Shown piece after piece: positions 10,674 through 58,343 of a stretch of DNA of 62,449 nt (positions within the stretch are counted from its first letter, which is position 1; every line of letters starts with the position of its first letter). This DNA comes from a virus (Duplodnaviria; Caudoviricetes). A model generated the notes under the pieces. It was not told where the DNA came from, searched no databases, and saw only the letters and a program-made list of their open reading frames with translations. The stretch is from the IMG/VR virus record IMGVR_UViG_3300034166_000053, positions 1 to 62,449 of that record, one strand, 5' to 3'. The translations under genes and the position numbers were made by a program.

Positions 10674-10829
10674 TTAGCCCCCGCTTTGGTTCTTGGCACG
10701 AGCAAGATTGCGGCCGAACTTGCGCATCGCTTCGCCGGTCACGCCGCCTTTACGCATGGCCTTGGCCTTGTGCATGCGCTTTTCATGCGCCTTCACTTCT
10801 GCCTTAGCGACTTGTTTCATCTTGTCCAT
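10674..10829 (-). CDS. Small basic late protein (51 aa, absent from ORF track)
   Basis: AGGAG RBS; MDKMKQVAKAEVKAHEKRMHKAKAMRKGGVTGEAMRKFGRNLARAKNQSGG; fills the gap exactly. Confidence 0.7.
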   Translation of the reverse strand: MDKMKQVAKAEVKAHEKRMHKAKAMRKGGVTGEAMRKFGRNLARAKNQSGG

Positions 10830-10839
10830 AATTGACTCC

Positions 10840-11268
10840 TTACGTCGTTGCTACCGATATTGTGCCTAAATCGACGGTCAAAACCAAGTTGTTTGGCGTC
10901 AAAACGGCATCGAAAAACTTTGAACCCCCCACAGGTGCCCAACCCCACTGGATGATACGGCTACCGCCTTCTGAGTAACCGTAACCGTCTGGCGTGGTAT
11001 TGCCTGTGAGGTCGAGTTGCAACCCACTTGTCCCAGAGACCTGATAGCTGACATCTGGACGCGGCTCACGCACAGCCTGCGGGTCGTCAACCGGGTACAT
11101 GCCAAGCTGCAACTGCGGCTGATCCGGGTCCCAGCACGTTGGACAAACCTTGATGTTGTACAGCTTCGTCTTAAGGACTTGCTTCTTAAGCTCCTTGAGC
11201 ATGTATCGCCCCGCGCAGCGATCACACTCCGCGATTGCGTACTTACCAGAAGCAAACCGATTCGGCAC
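10840..11268 (-). CDS. Zn-binding morphogenesis-region protein
   Basis: CDRC...CPTC followed by DPQAVREPRPD. Confidence 0.6.
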   Translation of the reverse strand: MPNRFASGKYAIAECDRCAGRYMLKELKKQVLKTKLYNIKVCPTCWDPDQPQLQLGMYPVDDPQAVREPRPDVSYQVSGTSGLQLDLTGNTTPDGYGYSEGGSRIIQWGWAPVGGSKFFDAVLTPNNLVLTVDLGTISVATT

Positions 11269-11276
11269 AAGTCACC

Positions 11277-12200
11277 TCAGTAGAACATCTGCCTAGGCAC
11301 AAACCGCTCAGGAGCCTTCTCCCGGTCTTCCTGTGAAGCAAGCAACCACTGCTGTTCGTACTCTTGCTTGAGCATACCCACACGATCAGGCGGTATTTCT
11401 GGCCGCTTGGATGCGACATAGAACGCCAAACCTGCAACCAGACAGGGGATCAAGCGGAAGGGGATGTCCTGAATCGTTATGCCGCTGCCCGCATCCTGCA
11501 TACGGCGCAGCCGCCAATAGACAAAGATGTACTGGTCACCGGGAGCGTTGGGGGTAGGCCAGACATTGATAGACGGCAGGTTCGTTACGCTGATTGCTGC
11601 GCCACTGGAATGAGAAGCGGCGGTCGTGTAGTTCTGCCCACGGAAGCAATTCAGAAGCTGGTTGCCGTCTACGTTCTGATAGACGATGGTTTCGCTACCG
11701 ATGTTGATGAACCCCGCCGCAGGCAGGTTTGCGGCGTTGCTGACGTTTATGGCCGTGGCAGACGCATTGATGCCTCCAACCAGCGTGACATTCGTTGAGT
11801 ACGACGCGCCAGTCTGGCGGTTGATCCAGACCTGAATTGGACGCCCTTGAGCCAGTTTGTTGGGGATCGTCGAATACGTCGGCTCAGAGATGCGGCTGAT
11901 GTTGATGTCAGTCTGATTTAGTCCGTTAGCCTGAGTACGGATCACTTGGTCAAGCAGGTCAATCGTATCGGTCGGGATGGCATACGTGGCCTGCCCAGTG
12001 TTCATGACGATCTGGCCCTGCTCAACCGTCCACAGGTTGATGCCCCGATTGGCCCACTCGATTGTGAGCATGTTCAGGCTGCGACGTGCGGTACGAAACT
12101 CGTAGCCGGTACGAATCTCTAGCCCCGCCCGCTCGTAGGCTTCCTCCATGATCTCATTGAGATCAAGATTAAACGCTGAGGTACCCGATGTGGTGGCCAT
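11277..12200 (-). CDS. Head-tail connector (adaptor) protein with an inserted surface domain
   Basis: EEAYERAG...ARRSLN...EWANRGINLW and PCLVAGLAFY. Confidence 0.7.
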   Translation of the reverse strand: MATTSGTSAFNLDLNEIMEEAYERAGLEIRTGYEFRTARRSLNMLTIEWANRGINLWTVEQGQIVMNTGQATYAIPTDTIDLLDQVIRTQANGLNQTDINISRISEPTYSTIPNKLAQGRPIQVWINRQTGASYSTNVTLVGGINASATAINVSNAANLPAAGFINIGSETIVYQNVDGNQLLNCFRGQNYTTAASHSSGAAISVTNLPSINVWPTPNAPGDQYIFVYWRLRRMQDAGSGITIQDIPFRLIPCLVAGLAFYVASKRPEIPPDRVGMLKQEYEQQWLLASQEDREKAPERFVPRQMFY

Positions 12201-12433
12201 TACCTATACCTTGCCGTTTTAGCCGCCACCTTGGGTGGTTGCTTAACAAATTGTTTTCCGACCTTCTTGCCTGCCCGCTTGGCACGGGTCGTGGCGGCAT
12301 ACTCAGCAGGAGTCAATGCCTTGATGGCGTTCTCAGGCAGATATCGCTCCCCCGTCTTGGAAGACGGTTTGCCAGACTTGGTACGCCATTTCTGGGCACC
12401 CCAGTCCTTGAGCGATTGCTGCGGGTCTTTCAC
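12200..12433 (-). CDS. Basic protein, C-terminal half of a DUF5872-like family
   Basis: QQSLKDW..QKWRTKSG...ERYLP...GKQFV; GTG start overlaps the upstream TGA. Confidence 0.6.
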   Translation of the reverse strand: MKDPQQSLKDWGAQKWRTKSGKPSSKTGERYLPENAIKALTPAEYAATTRAKRAGKKVGKQFVKQPPKVAAKTARYR

Positions 12434-12714
12434 TTGTATCCACCCCCACGGGCCTTGTATTGCTTAGCCAGAAGCTGTGCCTTGCGCGCCGACCATTGAC
12501 CCGCACCCGTACCCTGCACTGCCCGAGACTTGATCGACTCGAACAGCGACTTGCGCATGCCCGGCTTGGTGTAGTTGCCAGCCTCGTTGACCTTGGACTT
12601 GACCTTGCCGCCCTCGGCATACTGAGTGAAGTCCGTGTCATCCCGACGTGGCTTAGTCACGCCCTTGGGCATTTTAGATGGGCGAATAGCGCCCATGCCA
12701 CGGCTGGCCATCAT
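12430..12714 (-). CDS. Basic protein, N-terminal half of a DUF5872-like family
   Basis: YAEGG, then NYTKP...GQWSARKAQLLAKQYKARGGGY. Confidence 0.6.
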   Translation of the reverse strand: MMASRGMGAIRPSKMPKGVTKPRRDDTDFTQYAEGGKVKSKVNEAGNYTKPGMRKSLFESIKSRAVQGTGAGQWSARKAQLLAKQYKARGGGYK

Positions 12715-12716
12715 GG

Positions 12717-12932
12717 TTACACCATCTTTCCTCGGGTCTTGCCGCGAACAGCGCAACCGTCAGCACGGGAAGACGCGGTCCCACCTTTGGCCATCTTCTT
12801 TGGTTTCTTGGGGGGAGGTGCAGAGCCACCATCAACGTCTTGCGGAGGAGGCAGACCCGAATCTTCGGTATAGATGCCGCCCCGGATACCCCTGGGCTTT
12901 TTCTTTTCTTTCTCAAAAATTTCGTCCATCAT
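12717..12932 (-). CDS. Small late protein with MAKGG motif
   Basis: MAKGGTASSRADGCAVRGKTRG. Confidence 0.6.
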   Translation of the reverse strand: MMDEIFEKEKKKPRGIRGGIYTEDSGLPPPQDVDGGSAPPPKKPKKMAKGGTASSRADGCAVRGKTRGKMV

Positions 12933-12944
12933 GATTGGCTCCTA

Positions 12945-13307
12945 TTAGCACTTGCCGCCACGTTTCATGGCGATATGTTTGCCTTTGGTCTTGCCTTTGG
13001 AGGCAATCCCGTCAGCGGACTTGTGACCAGCAGCCAGACCGCCGCCAGCCATCTTCTTCATGCCAGCTTCTTTCATTTCATGCTTGATCATGGACTTGGG
13101 AGCGCCAGCTTTTTTCATGAAGCCGACTTCCTTCTTCATCATCTCTTTGGACTCTTTCATATCGCCACCTTCTGAAAATTTGCGGCCCTTGTCCGCTTTT
13201 ACGAATTCTTTGCCCACCGAAGTAGGCACCCCTGCTTTCTTGGCAAACGCTGGATTGTTGGCCACCGCTGCCATGAAATTGTGTTGTTTCTTGCTAACCG
13301 AGGGCAC
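12945..13307 (-). CDS. Lys/Met-rich late protein with three xxxGG motifs
   Basis: FSEGG, MAGGG, MKRGG; SADGIASKGKTKG. Confidence 0.65.
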   Translation of the reverse strand: MPSVSKKQHNFMAAVANNPAFAKKAGVPTSVGKEFVKADKGRKFSEGGDMKESKEMMKKEVGFMKKAGAPKSMIKHEMKEAGMKKMAGGGLAAGHKSADGIASKGKTKGKHIAMKRGGKC

Positions 13308-13542
13308 TGCGCTGCTCCTTCATGAAGTCATCAATCTTCTTTTCAAGCCGGTCCAGCCGATCCAAGACGCGATTGATGTCCGTATGCACCTCTGCCTTGG
13401 TGACATACTCTTTCGCAATCTCTTCCCGAGTGCGGTTGAGAAGAATCTGGATGCGCTTCATCTCGTCCGTAGATAACTTGACCCAGAACAGGATCAGGGC
13501 CGAGATAAGGGACAGAGCAGCGTTCCACAGTGTCACGTCCAT
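13294..13542 (-). CDS. Single-TM coiled-coil protein
   Basis: Hydrophobic N-terminus then LLNRTREEIAKEYVTK...LDRLEKKID. Confidence 0.6.
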   Translation of the reverse strand: MDVTLWNAALSLISALILFWVKLSTDEMKRIQILLNRTREEIAKEYVTKAEVHTDINRVLDRLDRLEKKIDDFMKEQRSALG

Positions 13543-13543
13543 T

Positions 13544-13798
13544 TCAACAGTTCCACGCCCGCAGGCTCTTGTTGATGCGACTGTTCGGGTCTTTCTTGGC
13601 CTTCTCGCCGGTCAGCTTGGCTTTCATTCCAGACATCCTGGCACAAAAAGAGTCTCGGCGTGAGCCGCCCTCTGGCTGCGGGGGCTTGAGTCCGGGCTTG
13701 CCCGGATTGGCCTTGTTGTAAGAGGCTCGCCCCTTGGCGTTCAAACCGCCCTTCTCGGACTTGCCTTCCTTGCGTTGCCATGCTGGTGTCTTAGCCAT
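13544..13798 (-). CDS. Basic protein (DUF6321-like)
   Basis: AWQRKEGK..KGGLNAKGRASY...SFCARM...SLRAWNC. Confidence 0.6.
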   Translation of the reverse strand: MAKTPAWQRKEGKSEKGGLNAKGRASYNKANPGKPGLKPPQPEGGSRRDSFCARMSGMKAKLTGEKAKKDPNSRINKSLRAWNC

Positions 13799-14796: not shown

Positions 14797-14808
14797 GACG
14801 ACCTCCTA

Positions 14809-15288: not shown

Positions 15289-15296
15289 TTCAATTG

Positions 15297-15370: not shown

Positions 15371-15387
15371 TTTAGTCAATATACACC

Positions 15388-15415
15388 AAAAGAAACGGGG
15401 GCACAAGGCCCCCGT
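15388..15415 (-). terminator. Intrinsic terminator after the major capsid gene
   Basis: ACGGGGGC-CTTGT-GCCCCCGT followed by TTCTTTT; a second hairpin lies at 15420-15440. Confidence 0.8.
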
Positions 15416-15448: not shown

Positions 15449-16357
15449 TTACGCGCCCTGAGAGCCGTACATGCCCAGCGGGTCAGACCAGCCGAACGAG
15501 TAACGCTCACGAGCCTTATAACGGACGTTGCCGGTATCAAAGTCGCCGTCCATCGACTGGCTCAGCGGCACGCGCACAAAGTGCTTCATACCGTTAGGCA
15601 CGTCAGTGGTCAGGAACCAAGCATTGGTGTCGGTCAAGAAGTGGTTAATGGTGTAACCCTCGGAGACCGAACCATTGCTCTTCAAGGCGTTGATATCGTT
15701 ATCGTTGGTGCCGACGCGCAGTTCAGTTTCCAACAGACGAGTTGCAACGAACTGCAAAGCAGGCGGAACAATCAGCTTCTTGGGCTTGGCTGCAATCAGC
15801 AAGTCACGCTCGTCAGTCCACAGGCTGATCTGAATAACGGCGGCTTCCAGAGAAGTCTCGTTCAAGTCAGCAGGGGTAGATGGAACGTTGCTGTTGGTGC
15901 CGCCAGAAACCAGCGGGTGGTTTGCGGAGAACAGAGGAACGCCGTCGCCACCGTTGTAGCCAACAGTAAAGCCGTTGTTCAGAACAGCGGCAGCCTTGAC
16001 TTGCTTGGTGTACGCCATCGAGCGTGCCAGAGCCTTGGTATAACGAGCGGCGAGGCTGTCATACAGGTTGTCTTCGATGGCCTCTTCGGTCAGCGAGAAA
16101 CCTTGAGCAATGGTCTCGTGGTTGTATCGGGCGGTCCAGGCTTCTTGACCGTTGTCATAGGCAATCGCACTGCCCTCGTTCTTCACCGGAGCGGCGGAGA
16201 AGCCAGACAGCTTGGTTTCCTCTTCAAACGAACGCTCAGAAGTCTCGGTCTCGTAGATTTCCTTGTGCTCTTCTTGATAAGTCGCATAAGAAAGACCGAA
16301 CAGAGCGTTCAAGCCAGGAAGCAGTTCCTTGAGCAGTTGTGCGCGTGAAATAGCCAT
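15449..16357 (-). CDS. Major capsid protein (Mu gpT-like, HK97 fold)
   Basis: MAISRAQLLKELLPGLNALFG, SERSFEEE, GGDGVPLFS..HP, PKKLIVP, RYKARERYSFGWSD. Confidence 0.9.
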   Translation of the reverse strand: MAISRAQLLKELLPGLNALFGLSYATYQEEHKEIYETETSERSFEEETKLSGFSAAPVKNEGSAIAYDNGQEAWTARYNHETIAQGFSLTEEAIEDNLYDSLAARYTKALARSMAYTKQVKAAAVLNNGFTVGYNGGDGVPLFSANHPLVSGGTNSNVPSTPADLNETSLEAAVIQISLWTDERDLLIAAKPKKLIVPPALQFVATRLLETELRVGTNDNDINALKSNGSVSEGYTINHFLTDTNAWFLTTDVPNGMKHFVRVPLSQSMDGDFDTGNVRYKARERYSFGWSDPLGMYGSQGA

Positions 16358-17446: not shown

Positions 17447-18430
17447 TCAAGCCTCCAATTTCATAAGTTCACGAGCATACTGCTCGGGGGTGAGTCCAAA
17501 TTTCTTTGCCAAGCCAACCTGCGTCTTGGTAAGAACGACCTTTTTGGGAGCCGTACTTCTCTTTGCAGGTGCCACCACCGTGCTTGGTCTAGTACGTTGA
17601 GGTGGTTCATCCTCATCGTTTGATTGGTTCGATCCAAACTCTTCAGGGAAGCGTTTGCGAACCTCTTTGTCGATACTTTCATAGTATTCGTTGGTGCCGA
17701 TGAAGGCTCTTCCGTAGCGTTCTGCCAACTCTTCATGGACACCCTCGGCAAATCGGCGCATTCCGCGCTTATTAGGGTCTACGAACCATTCGTTCTTCGA
17801 CACCCAAGCTGCCACTTTCGGGTCCATCTGCTGCTGGGCAGGCGGCTTTTGTGTGGTTTGTACATCATTTTCTACAGTTTGTACAGTCGGTTTGAAGTTT
17901 TTGGCCTTATCAAGCTTCAACTGCGCCCGCATCATCTCCTGCTGGGCGTCTAGCAGTTTGTCTGCTTCCCCAGAGTCGTAGGCATCTTTGAAGTTCCGTT
18001 TGGCCTGCTCCAACTCCATTTCAGCCGAAGTCTGATACGTGGAGATAAGCTCCTTCTCGCCGCTTTGCAGCATGCTCTTGAGCTTCTTGTTTTCCTCAAG
18101 AATGTTCTGAGCGATCTGTAGCGCCTCTTGCTGCTCTCGATATGCAGCCTCTTTCGCACGCCGCTCGTCGTGCCAAGCCTTCTTATATTGCTTGAACTTC
18201 GTCTTGACGTTGTGCGAGTAGTCTTTCGACTCGTCAACTTTCTCTAGCTCTTCCTTGACTTCGTCAGAAAGAGGGGCGACGTAGCGGTCTTCGGCAGGGG
18301 TGTCGTCCTTGACCTCGACCTTTACTTCGTCTGAATCTTCCTCAAACGAGACATCAATATCGTCTTCGGGTTTACCCTTAGAGTCCTTGACCTCGTCGGG
18401 GAACTTGAAATCGTCATCGTCTTTTGCCAT
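17447..18430 (-). CDS. Scaffolding protein
   Basis: Acidic N-terminus, coiled coil, C-terminal LAKKFGLTPEQYA helix; between portal and capsid. Confidence 0.75.
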   Translation of the reverse strand: MAKDDDDFKFPDEVKDSKGKPEDDIDVSFEEDSDEVKVEVKDDTPAEDRYVAPLSDEVKEELEKVDESKDYSHNVKTKFKQYKKAWHDERRAKEAAYREQQEALQIAQNILEENKKLKSMLQSGEKELISTYQTSAEMELEQAKRNFKDAYDSGEADKLLDAQQEMMRAQLKLDKAKNFKPTVQTVENDVQTTQKPPAQQQMDPKVAAWVSKNEWFVDPNKRGMRRFAEGVHEELAERYGRAFIGTNEYYESIDKEVRKRFPEEFGSNQSNDEDEPPQRTRPSTVVAPAKRSTAPKKVVLTKTQVGLAKKFGLTPEQYARELMKLEA

Positions 18431-18441: not shown

Positions 18442-18852
18442 TTATTTGCGTTTGATGCCGCGTGGGTCTTCGACAACACCTTCGACAGTGTCATCGTTGA
18501 TGATGCGGAACTCCCTGCCGTGGATGATCAGGCGGGTACCGCTGTTGGGGCGTACCAGCACAAAGTCACCCTTCTTGCACCAAGGACCCGTAGGGAACTT
18601 GGCCTTGTCCACATAGCAATCTGGACCAAGATCAACCACGAACAGGACTGTGGTCAGTACCTCTTCGTTACGCATGGTGATGTCAGACTTGATAAGTCCG
18701 ACTTCGCTGTCTTCAAACTCTTTCTCTGCCTCGGGAATCGCGCAAAGAATCTTGTAGCCGCTTGGCTTTGGTAGCTGTTTTGCTTTCTCTTCCGCTCTCT
18801 TGTGCAGCACCGCAGACAGGTCTACAGCACTACTTAGATCGAGATCACTCAT
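18442..18852 (-). CDS. GroES-like co-chaperonin
   Basis: LPKPSGYKIL...VVDLGPDCY...PWCKKGDFV...FRIINDDTVEGVV. Confidence 0.75.
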   Translation of the reverse strand: MSDLDLSSAVDLSAVLHKRAEEKAKQLPKPSGYKILCAIPEAEKEFEDSEVGLIKSDITMRNEEVLTTVLFVVDLGPDCYVDKAKFPTGPWCKKGDFVLVRPNSGTRLIIHGREFRIINDDTVEGVVEDPRGIKRK

Positions 18853-19048
18853 CGAGTTGCTCCATGTTTTTTGTAAGGTCTGTGATGAATTTGCGAGCGA
18901 TGAGCAGACCTTTAATTTCCCCACACATCTCGCAGTACTCGTCGTACGATCTGGCACCTTTCGATCCCAAATGTTCTTCGAGTTGTTTGACTTTCTCGTC
19001 AATGTTGTTGACGACCACCGAAGTGGCCTTCAGGATTTCGTACATCAA
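18845..19048 (-). CDS. Small head-module protein
   Basis: YDEY..MCGEIKGL; overlaps both neighbours. Confidence 0.6.
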   Translation of the reverse strand: MMYEILKATSVVVNNIDEKVKQLEEHLGSKGARSYDEYCEMCGEIKGLLIARKFITDLTKNMEQLDE

Positions 19049-21543
19049 TCACCCTTCTTTTTTGGTTGTGATCTCTGTTGTTCGCGGCGCTGCTCAAGTT
19101 CACGCCTGTGCCTATCGACATCTGCCATCACCCGGAAGCCCTCCGATTGCTGACGTGAAGTGATCTGCTGCCGCTCAGACATAGTCTTGGCCATGAGCTT
19201 GGCCCCTTCAGACTGCTGCTGTGCCTCAATACGAGCTTTCTCGACGTTGATCTGCTCTTGTTTGAGTTGAGCATCTGTCTGGTCTTTTGTCGCCTTGCGC
19301 TGGAGGTCTTGCATCTTGAGTTGCAACTCTTGCTGCTGCAACTGGATGAGCGGGTCTTGTGCCATCTGCTGGTTCTTCTGCTGCTGGGCTTCCTGCATGT
19401 TGCGCTGGAGAAGCTGTTGTGCAGCCTGCGCCGCCATTTGAGAGACACGCACCTCCATCTCTGGAGACATCTCGACCTCGTCCTGCTCTTCGCTGTACGG
19501 GGGCAGCATCTGGCCCATCGCCTGCTCAACCTGCTTGCGATACTCCATGCCCAAGTGCTCGACGACGTGCGCCATCATGGCCGCTTGAAGCGCCTGCGCC
19601 ATCTGCGGATTCATACCCACTAGAGCCTGAATCTTGGGGTCCTGCGCCGCTGCCATGTGGACTGCGATGTGCGCCTGATGGTCCTGATAGATGAACGCCT
19701 TGACCGGCTTGTTGCGCAAGATGTTCATGTTCTCCGTGACCGGATCACGAGGCTTCATGTCATCCGACATCGGCACGAGCTTCTGGTAGTTCTTGATGCC
19801 GAGCACATCCAACATCTGACGATGCAATAGCGGAAGGTCATACAACTGAGGCGCTGTTTGAGCTAGCTGAAGAGCCGCCTGATACTGAACAACCTTCTGA
19901 GCCATAGTGGCCGCGTTGGGATCGCTCACCGGGATGACATCAACTTGGTCGTAGTCGCTCTGCTTGATCGACCGGCCACCCTCCTCGGGCATGTACGAGT
20001 ACGCCGGAGGCGTATAGTCCCTGATGATCTCTTTGAGCAGCTTGAACTCTTGCCGCATCGCATAGTGGATGCGAGCCTGCACTGCCGACATCGTCTTAAG
20101 CTGCCGCTCAAGAATGGCCAGAGTCGTGCCCACCGGGGCCTGAGCAGACATGTCAGAGGTCTGCAACTCAACCGCGCCCGCAAACTTGCGGCCTTCCTCG
20201 ATGATCTGGTTAAGAAGCGCCGCTAAGACCTGACTTGGCTCCTTGTAAGGAAGAGGCATGATGTTGTCCCGCATGTTGCCACTAGGAACGTCCATGTCTC
20301 GCCATTCTCCGGGACTGATAGGAGTGTCATCCCCTTTTGCTCGTAGTCCTCGGGTCTTGAATCCCCCTGGAAGATTAGATAGAGTGCCAGCATCGACAAG
20401 CTGACGCAGGATAGAAGTACCAGACTTAGCAAATGCACCGACCAGATGAATGAGGCCGAACGCATAGAACCCAAAGCCCGGAATGTACGGATAGTGGACA
20501 AAGTGCTGCCGCTTCTGGTGCGTCTTGTCATTGGGTCTCCAATTCCTACGGATGGCCAGCACCTCGCCGGTACCCTTCTCAATCGTCACGACATACGGCA
20601 GCGCAATGCCCGTCTCTTTGCCATCGTCGTCCTTGTGCTCGTGGCCTTTGAGGTCGATCTCGACGTGCATCTCTAGCAGCTTGAAGCGGTTGTCCTCAGT
20701 CGCACGAAAGCCCAGCTTCTCAGCGATCTTCTTCTCAACCTCGTCCATGACTTGGACCGGCTCACCCAGGTCCACGTCCCGATAGAACCCCTCGTGCTGG
20801 AGCCTGCGCACATCGTTGGGGGTTTTACGCATGACGTGCGTCACACGCTCTGCCGACTCAAGGCTCGACGCGCCGTATGGCACCACAACGTCCTCAGCCG
20901 GGACATACATCGAGACCTGCCGGTCCAGTTGCAGATCAACGTAGACCTTCTTGAACGCATTACCCGCAAGGCCCAAGCCCCAGAGCATGCGCTCATGCTC
21001 AGGGCGGTACTCGACCATCACCTCGGTCATCTGATAGTTCATGTCCTCTTGGACACGCTCAGCCGCCTTCTTTTTCTCAGGGGTTTCTTTGCCGATGATC
21101 TTGGTCTTGACCGGACCCGCAGCGGGGAAGGTCTCCATCATCGTCTCTGCCTGAAACTTGACGACCGCCTCAGACAGCAGCGGGTGGTACACGCCGCAAG
21201 CGCCCGGCCACGGCTCAGTACGCTCTTCGAGCTTCATGCCAAGCAGTTCTAGGCCATCGACGTACGTCTTGATCCAGTCTTTGCGGGAGTCAATGTCGCT
21301 CTCGTAGTCGCCGATCAGGTTGCCCGCAAGCTCAGTAAGCTCACGCTCGTCCATGTCCTCGGCAAGGTTCTTATCAAACTCGTCCTCAATATCTGCCTTG
21401 GCAATCTCAAGGGTGAACTCGCCCTGACTGATAGATACTGACTCGGGGTCCTCGATCTCAATCTCGATGGGGTCCTCCACCTCGCTGATCTGGTCCAAGC
21501 CTTGAGGGGCCTGATAAAACGCCTTGTCGATATTTGTTGCCAT
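19045..21543 (-). CDS. Portal protein
   Basis: 832 aa following terL; PWPGACGVYHPLL, GNAFKKVY, LVDAGTLSNLPGG, long Gln-rich C-terminal barrel. Confidence 0.9.
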   Translation of the reverse strand: MATNIDKAFYQAPQGLDQISEVEDPIEIEIEDPESVSISQGEFTLEIAKADIEDEFDKNLAEDMDERELTELAGNLIGDYESDIDSRKDWIKTYVDGLELLGMKLEERTEPWPGACGVYHPLLSEAVVKFQAETMMETFPAAGPVKTKIIGKETPEKKKAAERVQEDMNYQMTEVMVEYRPEHERMLWGLGLAGNAFKKVYVDLQLDRQVSMYVPAEDVVVPYGASSLESAERVTHVMRKTPNDVRRLQHEGFYRDVDLGEPVQVMDEVEKKIAEKLGFRATEDNRFKLLEMHVEIDLKGHEHKDDDGKETGIALPYVVTIEKGTGEVLAIRRNWRPNDKTHQKRQHFVHYPYIPGFGFYAFGLIHLVGAFAKSGTSILRQLVDAGTLSNLPGGFKTRGLRAKGDDTPISPGEWRDMDVPSGNMRDNIMPLPYKEPSQVLAALLNQIIEEGRKFAGAVELQTSDMSAQAPVGTTLAILERQLKTMSAVQARIHYAMRQEFKLLKEIIRDYTPPAYSYMPEEGGRSIKQSDYDQVDVIPVSDPNAATMAQKVVQYQAALQLAQTAPQLYDLPLLHRQMLDVLGIKNYQKLVPMSDDMKPRDPVTENMNILRNKPVKAFIYQDHQAHIAVHMAAAQDPKIQALVGMNPQMAQALQAAMMAHVVEHLGMEYRKQVEQAMGQMLPPYSEEQDEVEMSPEMEVRVSQMAAQAAQQLLQRNMQEAQQQKNQQMAQDPLIQLQQQELQLKMQDLQRKATKDQTDAQLKQEQINVEKARIEAQQQSEGAKLMAKTMSERQQITSRQQSEGFRVMADVDRHRRELEQRREQQRSQPKKKGD

Positions 21544-29576: not shown

Positions 29577-29577
29577 T

Positions 29578-46077: not shown

Positions 46078-46261
46078 ACCGGAGTGGGTCTTCCCGTTCA
46101 CAGGCATGGAGGTGGGGGACAGCTTTTTCGTCCCCACACTGCGCCTAGCCGAGATGATCTACGCCATCGACAGTGGAGCCAAACGCGCCAAGATCAAAGT
46201 CAAGTGCTACATCACAACGAAGGATGACCACATTGGCGTAAGAGCTTGGCGTACCGCTTAA
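46043..46261 (+). CDS. Small hypothetical protein
   Basis: FPFTGMEVGDSFFVP...GVRAWR. Confidence 0.65.
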   Translation: MISLLTPTQITEPEWVFPFTGMEVGDSFFVPTLRLAEMIYAIDSGAKRAKIKVKCYITTKDDHIGVRAWRTA

Positions 46262-52200: not shown

Positions 52201-53460
52201 AGGTTTGCCAGCAGCGTCCGTGGCAGGCACCAGCAGATTCAAATCATCAGAGCCGGGCGCGGGTGGTTTGAACTGTTTGTTCTCGCCCGCTGTTGTAAAG
52301 ACCGTCTCCCTAAGAGCGTCGTCAGCAGCTTTGGTGGTAGGCTGGTCGCGGAAAAACTCACGCTTGCCCGTATAGGCATCGCGCCCACCAGCAATCGCAC
52401 CCATGCCGAAACCAGCAAGACCCTCAAGCGTACCCTGCCCAACCACACCGCGCATGGTGGGCACATCAAAGCCTTCGCGCTGCTGAGCGATGTTCTTAGC
52501 CAACTGCTCTTGGCCACCCTGAATAAATTCAGTGCCGAACTCTTTGCCGCCGGTTATTGCTGCTTGCTTGGTGATGCCGCGCTTAGCCGCTAGTTCAGCA
52601 GCTTCTCTTGATGCGGTCTTTAGCGCCGTTTCAGTTGCAGCCTTCTCTGCGGCTTTGCCAGCAATTTGTTTTGCCAACGTCCGTGCAATGACGGGTTCAG
52701 CACCTGTCCTTGCGCCGACCGCACCGATGATGGAGCCTAGCAGGATAGAGTCGAGGTTCTTGCCACCGTACGCCTGTGCATCAACGGCAATCTTTTCAAT
52801 CTGTTCGGGCGTCAGATTGAGTTCTTTTTGACCAGTAAGAATCTCTTTCGTGGCGTCATAGACCGCGCTCTTAATCGTGCCCGCACCCATAACCGCGCCA
52901 GTACCAAGCATAGCAGCGGTAGTTGCAGCGGCGGGAGCACCAAGGACAAACGCACCAACAGCGGCGAGGATGCTAGGAGCGGCAGTGCCAAGCGCGTTGA
53001 CAAGTAGATCGACAGGGGCAACCTGGGCCGCTTTCGCAGCAGCCACGACTTGGTCAAGGACACCCTTGTCCTCAGCCTCTTGCATGATCTGCGCCATGCG
53101 CTTGCTGTCCTGTTTGGACTGGGCGCTGTAGAGTTCAGCAATCCAATCTTCTGCACCGCGCAGGTTTTTAGACACAGCAGAATCTGCGCCCATAGCATCA
53201 GCGACTATGCGAAAGCCCCTCGTGACGCTCCCCGCCAACATGAGCGGCACATCTGCAACCTGACGGAAAACGCTTTGGTCTTCTGGCTTAGGCGCAGGCG
53301 CTGTAGCGCCCCCCGTGGGGATTTGCTCTACCGCAGATGCGGGCGTAGCAACTAAGTCCTTTTTGGCAAGCCAAGCATCCGGGTCAAACGGCGTTGCGGA
53401 TGCAGCGGGAGGTTGTGCGTCTTTCTTAGCAAGCCAAGCATCGGGATCAAAAGCCCCCAT
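46258..53460 (-). CDS. Giant internal virion (ejection) polyvalent protein with zincin HExxH and LPD38-like C-terminus
   Basis: 2400 aa; N-terminal Ala/Gly hydrophobic helices; ARYD...ILHELVHAAT...EFVAY; C-terminal FQIPWGFGLG. Confidence 0.75.
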   Translation of the reverse strand: MGAFDPDAWLAKKDAQPPAASATPFDPDAWLAKKDLVATPASAVEQIPTGGATAPAPKPEDQSVFRQVADVPLMLAGSVTRGFRIVADAMGADSAVSKNLRGAEDWIAELYSAQSKQDSKRMAQIMQEAEDKGVLDQVVAAAKAAQVAPVDLLVNALGTAAPSILAAVGAFVLGAPAAATTAAMLGTGAVMGAGTIKSAVYDATKEILTGQKELNLTPEQIEKIAVDAQAYGGKNLDSILLGSIIGAVGARTGAEPVIARTLAKQIAGKAAEKAATETALKTASREAAELAAKRGITKQAAITGGKEFGTEFIQGGQEQLAKNIAQQREGFDVPTMRGVVGQGTLEGLAGFGMGAIAGGRDAYTGKREFFRDQPTTKAADDALRETVFTTAGENKQFKPPAPGSDDLNLLVPATDAAGKPLVGAAPETTAGKTRADTEAAAAAQAAKLSLDEATTKANELIARVDGGGKMTRKELQGIGAGLGITFPFSATSNQAKFDIIRAHLGQQGAPSVSTTGPLDQTGGAGAGVAGQPGAIDTAGGTTAAKPGGVDVAGAATTTTAAGKGAKPGAVTPTTPAAPKTKQEIQQEILKAATDEELQRAMVQIGGSEVSLLPVDLIQAEINRRGTAKSAAQTDEDLLNDLLGGDSSLSARRTGAEMSRDEQLDKLGRRYGLSRSADESAQQFGARIKEAIAFEKAREGRPMSDIPATELAGQTLREETSYVPPDLQIEAYEAERQKFNQTIEDESEQLPAYDKLTNDERRVYFQEGIARPGAGTAQEHARVARRLSDYRLGKREETIEGETKGREDYNRERDSFGRKTGLSYSFPAWNSLSDESKRLFTAINKTNSAIEQYSAFQAVKAQIQKEKTDEASREALAQAETDATRQMLDAAERARKSQPAGKGDILPDNIIEALAKGDIKTVLNYISEKGNGLKLKKVSDFFLAGVQRGKTGSLKPRFARRPVNIRNSVAMQVFRGLASTLNNIEGFKVNVVYDENMVYDQIARYDANTNTLYVGPNGLDEATILHELVHAATVKIIHQFYIDPSVLTERSRKAVEQLIRVAAAAKSRLGSKYPNAFENLYEFVAYSQTDMDFQYDLAQQQVGKLAEATAKTEEQAQDIQLEREAKGGESRYDSFMDNLWGAYTGTLAYLYKLFTPGAKNTKVLMPTEKSRTTKAKTAKQEKAAETKAEIEARRIAADERAEERELSLAEREALTPESLFDDPDKEMKEAKIEPLRSEMVIQNGVANLKREILREPGYKGNLLLEASEMVQLILAAPEGGITQLAGKEGIGAELYAKIPRLPAPPPLFKKSKKGAAAAPAAAPPETPEDKLRKGGTQDPKTREFYKPSAKEKIESTPGKIWRSLTTAAGWRETVRRFQDKSIQSRSLHRKLDLAGLINRDMDGAFNNFDEQRDVATGEQRNFVNHYLRVPMDNIKQSVSDYVKMTKQKLDDVLIDLHMFSEMFHEPERRNVKWVTSVPLSTDQNLTHNGKKISAAQRRIDILGDPRTGKPGIKDRVELTEAQQRQLWDELTSLANNHADPAGDSPRIKDDRMRKRVKVMDINKDSPLYNVLGINQDEVNLRMQEYQALPDEQRQLLDKIFAEAREITKVTADLNKIGNYWSFPVSNLVGMYNYQHYLPFKGVSKHSVADEFVSFDTKATGKELQEIEYAADGRFSPADNPLLQMMSDAYRAAGRAGRRNYMQSIKNAVEPNKLNPTGTGVIENAKVIGHIEFAERNTVDLTKFKGGSNIFVYNPDGSIDIVQIKDPKILNALRYSFRDASPVLDMANSVTGFFGAMHTRYNYNFAPLNFVRDSLTNAWTMGAELGPMKSAQYIKTISAMVVKNGLGKAMEVAILHEKGDPVSQRMLADLASKDPFVRDMVEYLRRGGKTTYLESFSLKSSLHDLNTGLGKRRIIDTVEKFNKFVDVWNDMFEFTSRTAAFALRKEELVKKNIAKGMTEAAANRAAGTEAAAWTKNLANFEKAGEYAREMGALYMFIRASATGAMRAAEATLPAVRPLSMAVNDLPAVIRNDPKALEEFKANYAQQQRNARIMVTALGGMGMALFYMSALMAPDDDWKRNAVMNDNMGQWTRFARFHIPNEVSEKAGIGRDVVFQIPWGFGLGAFAAIGAQFAGFTVGASSAKEMFGNMFTSFADSFLPLPLSKIPPTESPESAGKWALDTVTPTTIRPILEFMMNTNGIGQTINSAATRRMGDAFTGGDRIPEIYKDAAEYFFNASLGSVDVSPNSLYFFANSYLDGLAKVGEVLYSWVNLDRGEKTFNIKTDVPLIGSFFGAKTNVDSREYGEIEKRILEIDKRMNTLDQRDPVRLAEYEAKNPLHGMLVDAYRSRQGELNKLRAEAREIRTMPDISPKTRDELLRISTMQQNVLKYQMVQDFKALGMER

Positions 53461-53471: not shown

Positions 53472-56459
53472 TTACCTGGCGTTAAGCCGCTTCTTGATTT
53501 CCGCTGCCCGTGGGTCGTTGGGGTTTGCATTCGCCCAGTTTAATGCGTCTGTGTCTTCACGAGAACGCGGAGGGGAACCAGAAGTCTGAAGGCCGAGACG
53601 GCCATAGGCCATGTCAGTGTTATTTCTGGCGGCTTCAGCCCTAGCGGTCCACCCTCTTTGGCGCTCGCCAATACGTCTTTGTGCCTCAGCAACTTTTGCC
53701 TCCATGCCCGCTGGTATCTCGCCTTTTTCGTTTCTCATCGCTGCGGTCTTTAGATCGGCCTTGTGTTGGTCGCCATTTTCTTCAAACGCAATACGCTCCA
53801 ACGTACGGCGCTCTTGTTCGCTAGCAGTCTGATACTGGCTAAACTTTTTGGCGTCCGCAATCTCTCCACTACGTTGAGCGCGGTTAGCAGTATCGCCTTG
53901 CTCACGAATTTCCGCAGCGCGTATCTGTGCATTAGCCGAGAACTTAGTGCCCTCCAAACTCCGCTTAGACGCTTCTTCGTTCTGCTGAACCTGCATCAGA
54001 CGTTCTTGCAGTTGCTGAGCGCGGTCGGCGGCCTTTTCTTTGAGGGCGCGTGCCTCTTTCATGTCGCCAAGCTTCTCCAGCCGGATGGAGTTGTCAATGT
54101 CGAATGAAACCTTATCGAGTTCGCGCTTTATTTTCTTCTGCTCTTTTTCGTCAGAAATCAAATCAGGAATGGTCTTCTCAAGCGCGTTCAGACCGGCAGC
54201 GATAGTCGGGCCGGGAGTCGAACCCCACTTGGCGAAGAACTGCGCAAGGCGCATGTGGCGTTGACGCTCAGCTTCATCTTTGGCGTTAGCACGCTCAGCC
54301 ATAATCTGTCTGCGGGACTCTGCGGCAGCAGTGTTCTCAGGCTTGCCAGTTTCAATATCCTCCAAGAAGGCCGACACCGGACGATTCGCCCTTGTACGCG
54401 CCTCGTATTCAGCACGCTGCGCATCAGCCAGTGTGCCTGTGAATGTGGGTGCCGTAACAACAGGAGCGGTGCCAGCCCGTGCTTCGGCTTCACCAGCAAC
54501 CCTCTCAGCCGAAGGAGTAGCTCCCGAAGGGGCTACAGGAGCCGCCGCACGGGGAGGAGCAACGGAAGTAATCCCAGCGCCTTGTGCTTCAGCTTCGCCA
54601 GCCCGGCCTTCAGCCGTAGAAGTGCGCCCCGTAAGAGCCGCCGCAGGAGCGGGTTGAGCCGCCGTAATTGCAGCGGGCGCAGCCGCAGGGACCTCCACAG
54701 GAGCGGGTTGAGCAGCTTCCATAATTCCAGCGGCAGGGGGCGCAAGAGATCGACTCGCAGCGGGAGGAAGCGGATTTGGCTCTGGGATTCGACCGCCACC
54801 CATGCCGCGTGTGTTATATATTGCGCCTGTTTGAATCCAATAAGGAACAGCCTCCGGCCCAAACTCTTTGGCGATTTCATCAATTTTTTCTTTGTTAGCT
54901 GCCCTGGCTTCTGGCGAATTTCTGCGCCGTTCCTCCTGCTCTTGAGCAACTCTAGCTTGAAATTCAGCGTCTCTAGCGGCCGCTTCGGCGGCTCTTTGCT
55001 CTGGAGTCTTCGCCCTTTCTCTAGCTTGTGCGTTTTGTCTACGAAGCTGCGCTTGTTCCTCCATCTGTTGCTCAAACCGATAGTTGGCTTCCGCCCGCGC
55101 ATTTTCTTCGTCTGAAATTGGTCTATTAATCGGCGTGACAGGAAAGTCAGCCCTGCGCCTAGGCACAGACTGTCCAATTCCAACGGGGAACGGCATCTGA
55201 GGAACTGACGCCTCTGATTCTGGGTCTACATCACCACCACGCTGAAACGCGACGATGCCGCCGCCGTACATACGCTGGGCGGCTTTCTCAGCCAAAATTC
55301 CCTTGGCCATTTCTTTGATGCGCTGGCTTGAGGACTCCCTGATGACATTCCTTAGCTGGTCAACACTCATGTCCGTCAGGTCGGAATAGACCTCGCCACC
55401 AACATCGTAGCGGGGGACCGAGGCGATGCCTCCTTCAGCAAATTTGAACTCGCTGGGTAGACCACCCGCTGCGCCCCCTGGGGGCCTCATTGCGTTGTAG
55501 ATGGATGCACCAGCGCCAGCCAGACCGATACCTTGGGTAAGCGGATTCGGAGCCGCAACGTACTGGTTGGTCGTAGCCGCTTGCATGGGCAGACCACGCA
55601 GCATATTGGACATGACGCCCAACTGCATAAGCGGATACTGCTGCATATTTGCATAGTCTTGGATCGCCTGATTGATCTTCTGCTGCTCCAGCGACTGCTG
55701 CTGTGCGCCAACTTGCTGCTGCATACCAAGCGCGGCTTGCCGCTGGCCAAACTCTTGCTGACCTAGAGCACCCATCTGACCTGCGCCCTGAAGCGCGGTC
55801 TGAAGACCCTGCATGCCCAAACCTGCACCATACTGGCGAGACTGCTCACGCATCTGCTGTTCACGGGCAAAGTTCTGCTGCGCCTGATCAAACGCAGTCT
55901 GATACCCACGGGCACGGATATCGCCTTGGAGCATGCCCAGATTACGCTGGCGCTCTGCCTCAACAATTGCCTGACGACCACCACCAAACGCACCGGCACG
56001 GGTGGCTTGCGCCTGATCTATCGTGCGTTGTACCTCAGAAGCCCGCTGTGCCTCACGAAGCTGCGGCTCCATAGCCGTCTCAAGGAACGGATTCATGTAC
56101 TGCGCGGCGCGTTCCGAAGTGAACTGACCCATGCGATAGGGGTCGTAGCCGGTACCCAAAGCACCCATTGTGGCTGCGCCAGCAAGTTGACCGCCAACCT
56201 GACCAAGTTGAGACGGGCCTAGTTGCCCGATGCCTTCAAACGCCTGCTGCTGCATGGGCGAGAAAGGAGCCACGTACGCCGACGGGTCAGTGCTGTAAGG
56301 CTTGTACGGCTTGAAACCAGTGATCTCATTGCCGTCCATATTGAACAACTGTTTCTGGGTCGCGCCCAGCATCGTATGGACATACGGTTCCGCGTATTCG
56401 GGAACGTTTGTGGTGTATGTCGTTCCAGTGCTTTGCGTAGTTCCGCCGCCTTTACCCAT
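53472..56459 (-). CDS. Internal virion (ejection) protein
   Basis: MGKGGG start, Gln/Gly-rich YMNPF...AGAFGGGR segment, clustered xxxGG motifs. Confidence 0.7.
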   Translation of the reverse strand: MGKGGGTTQSTGTTYTTNVPEYAEPYVHTMLGATQKQLFNMDGNEITGFKPYKPYSTDPSAYVAPFSPMQQQAFEGIGQLGPSQLGQVGGQLAGAATMGALGTGYDPYRMGQFTSERAAQYMNPFLETAMEPQLREAQRASEVQRTIDQAQATRAGAFGGGRQAIVEAERQRNLGMLQGDIRARGYQTAFDQAQQNFAREQQMREQSRQYGAGLGMQGLQTALQGAGQMGALGQQEFGQRQAALGMQQQVGAQQQSLEQQKINQAIQDYANMQQYPLMQLGVMSNMLRGLPMQAATTNQYVAAPNPLTQGIGLAGAGASIYNAMRPPGGAAGGLPSEFKFAEGGIASVPRYDVGGEVYSDLTDMSVDQLRNVIRESSSQRIKEMAKGILAEKAAQRMYGGGIVAFQRGGDVDPESEASVPQMPFPVGIGQSVPRRRADFPVTPINRPISDEENARAEANYRFEQQMEEQAQLRRQNAQARERAKTPEQRAAEAAARDAEFQARVAQEQEERRRNSPEARAANKEKIDEIAKEFGPEAVPYWIQTGAIYNTRGMGGGRIPEPNPLPPAASRSLAPPAAGIMEAAQPAPVEVPAAAPAAITAAQPAPAAALTGRTSTAEGRAGEAEAQGAGITSVAPPRAAAPVAPSGATPSAERVAGEAEARAGTAPVVTAPTFTGTLADAQRAEYEARTRANRPVSAFLEDIETGKPENTAAAESRRQIMAERANAKDEAERQRHMRLAQFFAKWGSTPGPTIAAGLNALEKTIPDLISDEKEQKKIKRELDKVSFDIDNSIRLEKLGDMKEARALKEKAADRAQQLQERLMQVQQNEEASKRSLEGTKFSANAQIRAAEIREQGDTANRAQRSGEIADAKKFSQYQTASEQERRTLERIAFEENGDQHKADLKTAAMRNEKGEIPAGMEAKVAEAQRRIGERQRGWTARAEAARNNTDMAYGRLGLQTSGSPPRSREDTDALNWANANPNDPRAAEIKKRLNAR

Positions 56460-56883
56460 GATGCGCTCCTTCAACCGGCAACTCAAAAGTCACCCAGTTA
56501 CTCTTGTACCCGTCATTTTGAAAAACCTTGGCCCATCCACGACGTGCCGTGGCCTCGATGCCATCACAACCCATGTCCCATGCAAAACGCTGCAGCAGCT
56601 TAAGCATCGGGTCTTTCCATTCTTTCAGTCTTTCACCGCCGCAAAACGACATGCAAAGGACTTTGCGTTTTGGGTAAACAACAAAGTTGGTGACTACTGC
56701 ACCCACGATTTTCCCGTCTTCAAACGCAACCCACAAGTGGTAGTCATAGTCTTTGACCGAATCGTAAATGTCGCCTACGGTGTATCGTCCAAACGTGTAG
56801 TCTGCCGCACGGTCCAGATATGGTTCGACCTGTTTCCAACACGTATCGACGTACTGGGAAGGGACCATCGAGACTTGGATCAT
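56452..56883 (-). CDS. GNAT-fold acetyltransferase-like protein
   Basis: LWVAFEDGKIVGAVVT...CGG...GCDGIEATARRGWAKV; lies among ejection genes. Confidence 0.6.
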   Translation of the reverse strand: MIQVSMVPSQYVDTCWKQVEPYLDRAADYTFGRYTVGDIYDSVKDYDYHLWVAFEDGKIVGAVVTNFVVYPKRKVLCMSFCGGERLKEWKDPMLKLLQRFAWDMGCDGIEATARRGWAKVFQNDGYKSNWVTFELPVEGAHHG

Positions 56884-58343
56884 GCTGGCATGTACTTCTT
56901 AGGATTGATCTGCTTGCCTTGCTTCGGGTTGCCAGTGCGCGCCTTGCGCACTTTGTTCATCATCTCATGCAAACGCTTAGCCCCAGCCTCGGTCGAACCA
57001 TTGCCAAGATGCGACACCACATCGGCAGGGATGACAAACTCGCCATCGGCCAGACGGGCGGGCTGCTTTCTACCGATCATGGCAGGGATGTTGTCACTCA
57101 TGCCATCACCGGGGCCTTTGAGCAAACGAGGACTGCCACCAGAAGCATAGCCACCAAGCGATGAATCCGAAGCTTGCATGATGCCGCCCCTTGCTGCTTC
57201 CGTTGCTTCACCCTGATCTTTGGCACCGGGCGGAGTTAGATCGATTTGGCCCATCGGTGTTGGTCTGCGCATGACGCCCTTATTGGGCACACGCAGGTTT
57301 GAGCGTTTATTGAGTTTGGCTTGACGAATCTGCGCGGCAGTCAAAGCGTCTTGGTAGCGAGTGTCAGGGTCAAGGTCGTAGTAAATGCCCACATCTTCGC
57401 CCTTGGGTGCGCTTGCGCCCCGACCACGTTCACCCTCTGCCAAACGAGTGTAGAAATTGAGCATCTCGGACATCGAACCACCTTTGGCGTAGCCGGGTGC
57501 ATCGCCATCTTCCATCCGAGTGGTGGGCATCTGGTCTTCTGGGCCGTCAATCGACATGACACCGCCTTTGGCGGCATACCTGGGGACGTACACATTCGGG
57601 TCGGGGTCCATCGCCTGAAAATTTTCAGACATCCGGTACTGAGGACCGTACGACCTTCTTTGAGGCATCTCTGCGCCTCCTTGGTCAAGCAGCCCCAGGT
57701 TGTACGCGCCTGTATACAGCATTGCGCCAGTCATGAACGGATGCTTATCAGCGAACGCAGTAAATTTATCAAACCCCGTCGGGCCTTGTCCCGCAACTGT
57801 ATAACTGGGTTCAGGCGCAGCACCGGGCGGTAATTGAAGCGGGCTAGTACTAGCAGGGGGAGTAAGCGTAAAGGGTTGGCCGACCTCATTAAGCATTGGC
57901 GATGCTGGAGATTGCGCGCCCATAATCCCGCTATTTGCGACATTGGCTGGACCGGGGCTTGCGGCGGTCTGCATTGCGCCTTCCATCGCTGTTTGAATCT
58001 TCGCACCGCCGGCACCGGGTCCACCTGCGGCAATTGTTTCAAGCCCAGCAGTAGGACCTGCGGCGGCAATTTGAGTCCCTGTACCACTAGTAAGTGCTTG
58101 CAGATTAGCCATTTCAGCAGCGGTAATACCGGCTCCGGCCCCAGCCCCGGCTCCTGCGGCTTGACTAGCGGCGACTTGACTAGCGGCGGCTTCAGCAGCA
58201 GCGGCTTGTGCAGCAGTTTGGGCAGCGGTCGTTCCAGCAGCGGCGGTACTAGCAGCACTAGCGGCAGCGGCAGCTTCAGCAGCAATTAGGGCTTCGGCGG
58301 CAAGAGCGGCTTCAGCCGTGGCAAATGCAGCAATGAACGGCAT
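56880..58343 (-). CDS. Internal virion protein with GPGDGMSD...DGEFVIPA domain
   Basis: Ala-rich N-terminus, four xxxGG motifs, conserved C-terminal domain. Confidence 0.65.
   Translation of the reverse strand: MPFIAAFATAEAALAAEALIAAEAAAAASAASTAAAGTTAAQTAAQAAAAEAAASQVAASQAAGAGAGAGAGITAAEMANLQALTSGTGTQIAAAGPTAGLETIAAGGPGAGGAKIQTAMEGAMQTAASPGPANVANSGIMGAQSPASPMLNEVGQPFTLTPPASTSPLQLPPGAAPEPSYTVAGQGPTGFDKFTAFADKHPFMTGAMLYTGAYNLGLLDQGGAEMPQRRSYGPQYRMSENFQAMDPDPNVYVPRYAAKGGVMSIDGPEDQMPTTRMEDGDAPGYAKGGSMSEMLNFYTRLAEGERGRGASAPKGEDVGIYYDLDPDTRYQDALTAAQIRQAKLNKRSNLRVPNKGVMRRPTPMGQIDLTPPGAKDQGEATEAARGGIMQASDSSLGGYASGGSPRLLKGPGDGMSDNIPAMIGRKQPARLADGEFVIPADVVSHLGNGSTEAGAKRLHEMMNKVRKARTGNPKQGKQINPKKYMPA

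Follow-up and report, generated by a model that had tools for sequence, protein, structure and literature searches.

A conserved [F/Y/M]-x-x-G-G motif at module ends of small basic and ejection-type proteins in the genome of an HTVC023P-type phage

Here we report a short linear protein motif that is shared by small basic proteins and ejection-type proteins encoded in the virus record IMGVR_UViG_3300034166_000053 (Duplodnaviria; Caudoviricetes). The record comprises 62,449 bp and represents a whole phage genome (completeness of 97% by CheckV); in its full length it is the window analysed here. Comparison with homologues indicates that the motif is under selection at the level of the protein and that it lies at the ends of protein modules. 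We consider it possible, with a probability of about 0.4, that the motif is an uncleaved docking or assembly peptide shared by the internal and ejection proteins of the phage.

The original prediction had listed 14 copies of a looser pattern, [F/Y/M/A]-x-x-G-G, in six proteins. All 14 copies were found at their coordinates in the minus-strand reading frames of the following genes:

10674..10829, minus strand: 51-amino-acid (aa) basic protein, with MRKGG at 10743-10757
12430..12714, minus strand: 94-aa basic protein (p94), ATG at 12714, with YAEGG at 12607-12621
12717..12932, minus strand: 71-aa basic protein, with MAKGG at 12780-12794
12945..13307, minus strand: 120-aa basic protein (p120), with FSEGG at 13164-13178, MAGGG at 13038-13052 and MKRGG at 12954-12968
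53472..56459, minus strand: 995-aa ejection-type protein (1004 aa, p1004, if the TTG at 56486 is the start), with FAEGG, YDVGG, MYGGG and FQRGG clustered at 55233-55442
56880..58343, minus strand: 487-aa ejection-type protein, with YAAKGG at 57561-57578, YAKGG at 57477-57491, AARGG at 57183-57197 and YASGG at 57135-57149

Further matches to the loose pattern are ARGGG in p94 and MGKGG and AFGGG in p1004. Alanine in the first place was not supported, with the exception of one domain-edge site at which A, L, F, M and Y alternate, and the pattern sharpens to [F/Y/M]-[A/K]-x-G-G.

The frequencies expected by chance were estimated by shuffling the residues within each protein, with the following results:

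70 proteins of the window, [FYMA]xxGG: 42 observed, 27.2 +/- 5.2 expected, reached by 4 of 2000 shuffles
70 proteins of the window, GG dipeptide: 153 observed, 133.2 expected, reached by 71 of 2000 shuffles
70 proteins of the window, [FY][AS]xGG: 8 observed, 1.6 expected, reached by 0 of 2000 shuffles
44 late proteins, [FYM]xxGG: 23 observed, 10.05 expected, reached by 2 of 2000 shuffles
26 early proteins, [FYM]xxGG: 3 observed, 3.33 expected, reached by 1303 of 2000 shuffles
Six proteins listed above, [FYM]xxGG: 13 observed, 2.08 expected, reached by 0 of 2000 shuffles (set picked post hoc)
Other 38 late proteins, [FYM]xxGG: 10 observed, 7.93 expected, reached by 558 of 2000 shuffles

The late proteins thus carry an excess and the early proteins none, but the excess is confined to the six proteins and does not extend to the remaining 38. 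Although composition-matched shuffling never equalled the count in the six proteins, this set had been chosen post hoc, and the real test is therefore conservation in relatives. When the whole proteomes of four complete relatives were counted, the outcome was mixed. In phage DSL-LC04, the late proteins held 23 copies (12.5 expected, reached by 0 of 500 shuffles) and the early proteins 1 (2.9 expected); the corresponding values were 20 (13.3 expected, 26 of 500) and 3 (1.9 expected) in 023Pt, 10 (6.8 expected, 78 of 500) and 1 (2.5 expected) in HTVC027P, and 6 (5.8 expected, 264 of 500) and 3 (4.8 expected) in MinM2. The signal therefore belongs to particular protein families rather than to late proteins generally. 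Single conserved copies of [FYM]xxGG in a 142-aa protein, a 140-aa protein (8805-9227) and the large terminase were placed outside the motif system, as they look like ordinary residues of folded proteins.

Homologues were collected from 80 capsid-centred IMG/VR loci, in which open reading frames (ORFs) were called mechanically. Conservation was strong in both the small-protein and the ejection families, and the motif common to the six proteins is a real label that has been kept in relatives. The original prediction had also placed the copies at boundaries between segments, which was borne out by the homologues of small and ejection proteins alike. To judge from these alignments, the small proteins are a hypervariable, module-shuffled family in which the motif is the joint between modules. 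The short modules occur in many orders, and the joint is nearly always [F/Y/M]-x-x-G-G. Among the module types are the one that heads p120 (43 residues), one rich in K and H, a basic one at the C-terminus ('..ADG-I/C-A-x-RGKT..') and the DUF6321 domain, which is a separate 84-aa gene in this genome and a fused module in relatives; there are others. In the 51-aa protein, which has 31 homologous ORFs in 29 loci, MRKGG stands between a K/H-rich module at the N-terminus and a second, C-terminal one, and fused relatives put a different C-terminal module behind the same N-terminal one. All 37 distinct homologues of p94 have kept its 36-aa leader as far as Y-[A/K]-x-G-G. Behind the leader, at least three unrelated C-terminal modules occur, and in some cases the protein simply stops; the C-terminal part of p94 matches phrog_17747. 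In the 71-aa protein, MAKGG stands directly upstream of the conserved basic C-terminal module (..ADG-C/I-A-x-RGKT..), and 51 of the 67 basic C-terminal modules in relatives have the motif at most 14 residues upstream.

In an alignment of 26 p120 sequences, G47, G89, G117 and G118 were invariant and the C-terminal Cys was nearly so. The family is very large and unannotated, with at least 7,999 relatives from 8,000 scored candidates. Its N-terminal module (residues 1-43; 13179-13307, minus strand) matches phrog_16759/22033/25121 and 124 phage records, mostly of jumbo phages, and has no Pfam family. It heads jumbo-phage proteins annotated as 'virion structural protein', such as PBECO4 gp454, and is 77% identical to the 58-aa phiKZ165.1. 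Unlike p120, however, phiKZ165.1 and PBECO4 gp454 carry the N-terminal module without any [FYM]xxGG. Giant phages such as phiKZ and SPN3US encode a prohead protease with a different site, which processes their ejection proteins. They contain many head-internal ejection proteins, as described in the abstracts of PMC5694885 and PMC7411985.

The composition of the motif was derived from 270 GG sites in the small family. F, Y or M occupied position -3 in 183 of them (68%, against a background of 11.6%), with enrichments of 7.3-fold for F, 9.5-fold for Y and 4.7-fold for M, and of only 1.4-fold for L; position -2 was K in 36% and A in 32%. The 158 distinct small proteins held 268 motif copies, with at least one copy in 133 proteins. 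Twelve copies ended inside the first 16 residues and 36 at most 5 residues from the C-terminus, and the spacing between successive copies was 12 residues or less in 35 of 135 cases, with a mode of 9. The residue after GG was unrestricted (K in 63 of the 268 copies, M in 43, S in 25, V in 20, E in 19 and P in 4). Forty-nine of the 158 proteins end in Cys, often as M-x-x-G-G followed by 1-3 residues and the Cys (e.g. 12945-12953, minus strand). These proteins are encoded downstream of the capsid gene and before the adaptor-like gene, in a region that measured 2.6-6.7 kb in 30 loci, with a median of 9 ORFs, 5 basic ORFs and 7 motifs, while the flanking capsid gene was 85-95% identical. A Pfam scan of the small proteins gave no match. 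The KGG stress-protein repeat (PF10685) had no match at E<=10 in the six frames of the genome, and DUF3008 (PF11450), DUF5872 (PF19197) and DUF6496 (PF20106), which were considered as candidates for the small modules, did not match either.

The ejection-type proteins carry the same motif at the borders of conserved domains. Residues 10-343 of the 995-aa protein match phrog_4287 ('DNA ejection protein'), and the motif cluster lies just downstream of this conserved N-terminal domain (residues ~10-335). Both full-length homologues keep the motif places; the shorter ones stop at the boundary, one of them with a terminal copy. For the 487-aa protein, homologues were found only for the last ~110 residues (~377-487; 36 ORFs from the 80 loci), and in many relatives this C-terminal domain and the N-terminal one of the 995-aa protein are directly fused, e.g. 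in a 605-aa ORF of locus L144. In the window, the two genes are separated by a further gene:

56883..57197, minus strand: conserved C-terminal domain of the 487-aa protein, with an invariant upstream A-x-G-G-[ILM] edge
56452..56883, minus strand: 143-aa GNAT-like gene between the 487-aa and 995-aa genes (weak Acetyltransf_1 match, E 0.0076), with a homologue in only 2 of 80 loci

A profile of the C-terminal domain matched 19,551 cluster representatives at E<=1e-3 among 1.84 billion (10,750 at 1e-10 and 4,500 at 1e-30), and it also matched all four complete relatives; the domain mostly ends proteins of 142-993 aa. The 150 best representatives, clustered at 50% identity, are the least dependent sample available. 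They contained 476 copies of [FYM]xxGG against 113.3 +/- 10.6 expected (maximum of 143 over 300 shuffles), with at least one copy in 135 and at least three in 97 of the proteins. Motifs flank the domain on both sides, 180 copies lying 31-50 residues before the GEFV core of the domain and 39 copies 50-69 residues after it; the simple pattern used to locate the core missed it in 21 of the 150 representatives. In an alignment of 100 sequences, the second G of the upstream copy did not vary at all, and conservation was at least 90% for both the first G and the Ala at -2.

Caulobacter phage GB2A (locus L172), a distant member of the lineage (capsid protein 40% and portal 31% identical), keeps the order 'motif - domain - motif' at the end of gp065c and has no motif-rich small proteins, which suggests that the association with ejection proteins is the wider one and that the expansion of the small proteins is lineage-specific. 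The only small basic protein of GB2A is a 42-aa Lys-rich, Cys-terminal protein in the head module (26270-26398) that lacks the motif.

These observations would fit a peptide that is bound rather than cut. A partner would receive the aromatic or Met side chain in a pocket, while the two glycines would permit a tight turn of the backbone. We would look for this partner at one procapsid site common to all the motif proteins, be it inside the capsid shell, on the scaffold or portal, or on the C-terminal domain of the 487-aa family; unrelated cargo modules could then co-assemble by means of one shared handle. Docking is favoured by the specificity for F, Y and M, by the fixed register around a conserved domain, by the lack of a recognisable protease, and by the occurrence of the motif in proteins of opposite composition (K-rich small proteins, A/G/Q-rich or acidic ejection proteins). 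Tandem and terminal copies fit multivalent terminal handles better than cut sites. Disorder of the motif in models of the monomer is likewise what would be expected of a peptide that becomes ordered on a partner. The small proteins are probably located inside the virion, as suggested by the position of their genes, their link to ejection proteins and the N-terminal module that they have in common with jumbo-phage virion proteins.

Structure prediction with AlphaFold2 (AF2) was applied to the C-terminal region of the 487-aa protein and gave a mean predicted local distance difference test (pLDDT) score of 61.7 with 30 sequences and of 62.6 with 100 sequences. Both times, confident modelling was limited to the surroundings of the GEFV core (a beta-hairpin and two helices), and both the motif copies and the conserved stretch between the motifs and the core had a pLDDT below 50 in the monomer models. 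A stretch that is conserved yet not modelled may be an element that becomes ordered only on a partner or in an oligomer. With Foldseek, the model had no counterpart in the PDB at E<=0.001. Prediction of a complex of the capsid protein, the 487-aa C-terminal region and the 120-aa protein scored 0.00 in two runs without controls and speaks neither for nor against binding. The clustering of copies at fixed distances from the 487-aa C-terminal domain ties this domain to the motif. The original prediction is thus supported in part, in that the label is real, whereas its role in routing cargo into the head is a proposal.

Several points weigh against docking. No receptor for the motif was found in the analyses that were run, and with the 100-sequence alignment AF2 left the flanking motifs undocked on the domain. 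The enrichment in late proteins was modest or absent in two of the four relatives (HTVC027P and MinM2), and 25 of the 158 small proteins lack the motif. The family counts come from related sequences, which are not independent; we only infer that the small proteins are components of the virion; and the absence of a protease is negative evidence, since a host protease could act instead.

The closest functional parallel is offered by T4, with its internal proteins and their capsid targeting sequence, a leader that is present once, at the N-terminus, and is cut off by a prohead protease. T4 has diverse small, mostly basic head-internal proteins that carry one short signal for the prohead core, as described in the sections of PMC3012670 consulted. 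In the lineage of the present phage, too, small basic proteins with little but the motif in common are encoded in a hyperplastic locus (158 proteins, 133 of them motif-bearing). In contrast to T4, most copies of the motif are internal or C-terminal, frequently in tandem, with only 12 of 268 copies in the first 16 residues, no Peptidase_S77 is encoded, and location in the virion is presumed. A second parallel may be drawn with encapsulin targeting peptides, which, according to the sections consulted of PMC7925596, are short terminal peptides with hydrophobic residues around a glycine hinge, bind a pocket inside an HK97-fold shell and can load unrelated cargo. The capsid protein of the present phage is also of the HK97 type. 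The 36 motif copies near the C-terminus and 12 near the N-terminus may be similar in kind, but the sequence differs from the peptides in those sections. The encapsulin peptide has a GSL-type core and is usually single and C-terminal, whereas the motif here is [F/Y/M]-x-x-G-G and its binding to the capsid is a proposal.

We tentatively extend the docking proposal to a larger group, although this broader claim is less likely than the docking itself. The motif may be the tag by which cargo is generally loaded in aquatic tailed phages of a very large group that is as yet uncharacterised. In these phages, a procapsid pocket or the C-terminal domain (with its 19,551 clusters) would read [F/Y/M]-x-x-G-G, and the tagged modules would be packed and later ejected. 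A lead from an Atlas feature search (0.79) to crAss cargo protein 1 (PF25725) was discarded, as it had no match in the genome at E<=10.

A rather doubtful alternative to docking is that the motif is structural punctuation without a reader, i.e. a helix C-cap or turn combined with a flexible hinge that keeps short modules apart, so that beads-on-a-string proteins could pack in the head or thread the tail. The position at module ends would agree with this, as would the K-, E-, A- and M-rich segments upstream in the small proteins, which are helix-prone by composition, and the finding of neither a receptor nor a protease. In a capping box, a hydrophobic residue is expected after the glycine, and in the ejection family such a residue often follows GG (I enriched 3.6-fold and 4.8-fold). 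A generic cap, however, would accept L and V as readily as F, Y and M, whereas L is enriched only 1.4-fold and V is not preferred. The AF2 models of the 487-aa protein have no helix before the motifs, and one helix begins after YAKGG, with low confidence. Moreover, the motif is invariant at a fixed distance from the domain over 100 diverse sequences, and the tandem units of 9 residues are too short for capped helices.

Unlikely, in our view, is a second alternative, in which the motif is a maturation site that is cut after GG by an unrecognised phage protease or by a host protease, freeing modules from small polyprotein-like precursors and trimming the ejection proteins. It is suggested by the position of the motif exactly at module joints, by modules that are separate genes in one phage and joined by the motif in another, by the 12 copies inside the first 16 residues, which resemble a short removable leader, and by the few stand-alone proteins that terminate in GG. 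The adenovirus protease and pS273R of African swine fever virus (ASFV) cut GG-X sites in basic, DNA-associated core proteins, and the adenain consensus has M, I or L at P4. The likeness to the present motif lies in a Gly-Gly that follows a hydrophobic residue in small basic proteins. The adenovirus analogy drawn in the original prediction nevertheless fails in its register, as F, Y or M stand at P5 (68%), and P4 is K in 36%, A in 32% and M in 6% of the 270 sites. Further differences from adenovirus and ASFV are that no clan CE protease was found and that copies are in tandem or close to the terminus. Copies 8-9 residues apart, and the 36 copies at most 5 residues from the end, would give trivial products, an argument that is qualified by the conservation of residues beyond the near-terminal copies (the terminal Cys); conserved residues past the last copy in turn count against cutting, as does the free choice of the residue after GG, where Pro occurs in 4 of 268 copies.

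A protease was sought throughout the genome. That no prohead protease can be recognised was confirmed with Pfam, PHROGs and NCBIfam and by six-frame searches. Peptidase_C5, C48, C39, S78, S77 and Mu-like_Pro were all without a match in the six-frame search of the 97%-complete genome (C5, C48 and C39 at E<=10), and no protease was detected with the three databases among late ORFs, early ORFs or eight overlapping pieces of the 2400-aa protein. The head module had no protease-like match; where PHROG families named 'head maturation protease' matched, they covered only the capsid part of fusion families, and alignments of the 151-aa and GroES-like proteins revealed no conserved catalytic pair. The genome does encode a 443-aa protein (29557-30888, plus strand) with a putative metallopeptidase domain, DUF2201_N (HENLH at residue 78), fused to a VWA-like domain, which counts in favour of cleavage. 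As only one of the four motif-bearing relatives has a homologue (MinM2, 23% identity), this protein was ruled out as a general reader of the motif. Its gene adjoins that of a MoxR-like ATPase (phrog_1297; 28206-29339, plus strand) and stands among replication genes. Double-glycine leaders that are processed by C39 peptidases have hydrophobic positions of their own. The conserved 36-aa leader of p94 resembles them in ending with GG before a variable peptide, but its hydrophobic positions differ, its gene and those of the other small proteins lie in a phage head module, and neither a C39 peptidase nor a transporter is encoded.

It is highly improbable that the joint is a linker at the DNA level that promotes recombination of modules and has no function in the protein. 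Modules are heavily shuffled in the 2.6-6.7 kb region between highly conserved genes, which would suit such a linker. Synonymous variation is free, however: for its 195 copies the small family uses 158 distinct 15-mers, with up to 13 DNA versions of a single peptide, and the use of Gly codons at the motif matches that in the rest of the small proteins. This argues against a recombination linker, which is largely refuted, and indicates that selection acts at the level of the protein. Chance or composition, in which Gly-rich low-complexity proteins simply yield such pentapeptides, has next to no probability: the barely enriched GG dipeptide, the only 1.5-fold enrichment of the loose pattern with Ala and the lack of an excess in the other 38 late proteins would be in keeping with it, but it is refuted by the shuffles of the six proteins and of the 150 relatives, and by the conservation of motif positions in alignments.

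The genome is related to the HTVC023P-type pelagiphages. The nearest named phages by similarity of the large terminase are DSL-LC04 (53%), 023Pt_psg01 (50%), the Pelagibacter phages HTVC027P and HTVC023P (47-48%), and Synechococcus phage MinM2 and Planktothrix phage Pag-Yong1 (42%). IMG/VR contains a great many relatives, with at least 600 matches to the capsid protein, and the best 80 loci are 85-99% identical; a megablast search with 53472-58343 found no near-identical phage record. The lineage is among the most abundant marine and freshwater phages, and its structural proteins are nearly all unannotated, according to the portion of the 2019 preprint consulted. The motif was not found in the literature searched, the scope of which left out subscription journals and supplements. 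The sections consulted of the HTVC023P preprint, PMC9599517 and PMC10149686 mention neither the motif nor a protease nor virion proteomics.

The late genes are on the minus strand and run from 23632 to 1 and then across the record ends from 62380 to 46258, and the replication genes are on the plus strand between the two late-gene blocks. The head module consists, in this order, of a candidate small terminase, the large terminase, the portal, a GroES-like protein, proteins of 327, 151 and 202 aa, and the HK97-type capsid protein. Downstream of the capsid gene, tiny basic ORFs (10408-13798) come first, then two SU10-adaptor-like genes and, after them, the fibre genes. Past the record ends, genes for virion proteins of 742, 463 and 116 aa are followed by the ejection-type genes (487, 143, 995 and 2400 aa). 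The principal genes of the head module are:

21553-23073: large terminase
19045..21543, minus strand: portal protein (phrog_1216 portal, 7.9e-24), a candidate receptor of the motif
17447..18430, minus strand: 327-aa acidic coiled-coil protein (phrog_28737, function not known), a probable scaffold
15449..16357, minus strand: HK97-type major capsid protein (PF25209 Phage_capsid_4, 3.5e-15; Mu-like_gpT), a candidate receptor of the motif

The 327-aa protein is considered a probable scaffold on the basis of its composition and position. The motif is absent from the 60 homologues of this protein that were compared, and homologues of the capsid protein contain 1 copy against 14.4 expected.

The GroES-like protein (18442-18855, minus strand) has a weak Cpn10 match (E 0.12) and matches phrog_3188 at 6e-6; in the 40 homologues sampled, neither the Cys of G-P-W-C-K nor a D-P-R-G close to the C-terminus varied. 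In view of this gene in the head module, a resemblance of the motif to the mobile loop of GroES was considered but set aside, as the copies in small proteins are not followed by a hydrophobic run after GG. The only recognisable domain of the 2400-aa protein (46258-53460, minus strand) is LPD38 (large polyvalent protein associated domain; residues 2083-2269). This protein has no PHROG match and no homologue among 160 loci, and a comparison with PDB sequences gave nothing below E 0.69. Between the small basic proteins, an 82-aa protein (13294-13542, minus strand) with an N-terminal hydrophobic helix and a coiled coil matches phrog_462 ('lipoprotein') and phrog_12220 and may be a lysis or membrane protein. 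The 142-aa protein (10840-11268, minus strand) combines a four-Cys, zinc-ribbon-like N-terminal part, which weakly matches Phage_zn_bind_2, with a conserved C-terminal 'GGSR..QWGW.PVGG' part; its Y-S-E-G-G is conserved only in part and looks unrelated to the motif system. At least six small fibre-like paralogues at 2753-6768 (minus strand) have a phrog_11355 C-terminal domain in common and phrog_18673 N-terminal parts, and look like a cassette of alternative receptor-binding tips.

How internal and ejection proteins are loaded in podoviruses that lack a prohead protease is poorly understood, and a handle of five residues offers an experimental entry point to both the ejection proteins and the fast-evolving small basic proteins. 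Should the motif prove to be a loading tag, thousands of metagenomic proteins now listed as 'hypothetical' would be marked out as virion cargo, and there would be a simple means of getting foreign proteins packed into the heads of phages. The phages would then have an equivalent of encapsulin cargo loading and, without a protease, of the T4 internal-protein system, by which a hypervariable arsenal of small basic injected proteins could evolve.

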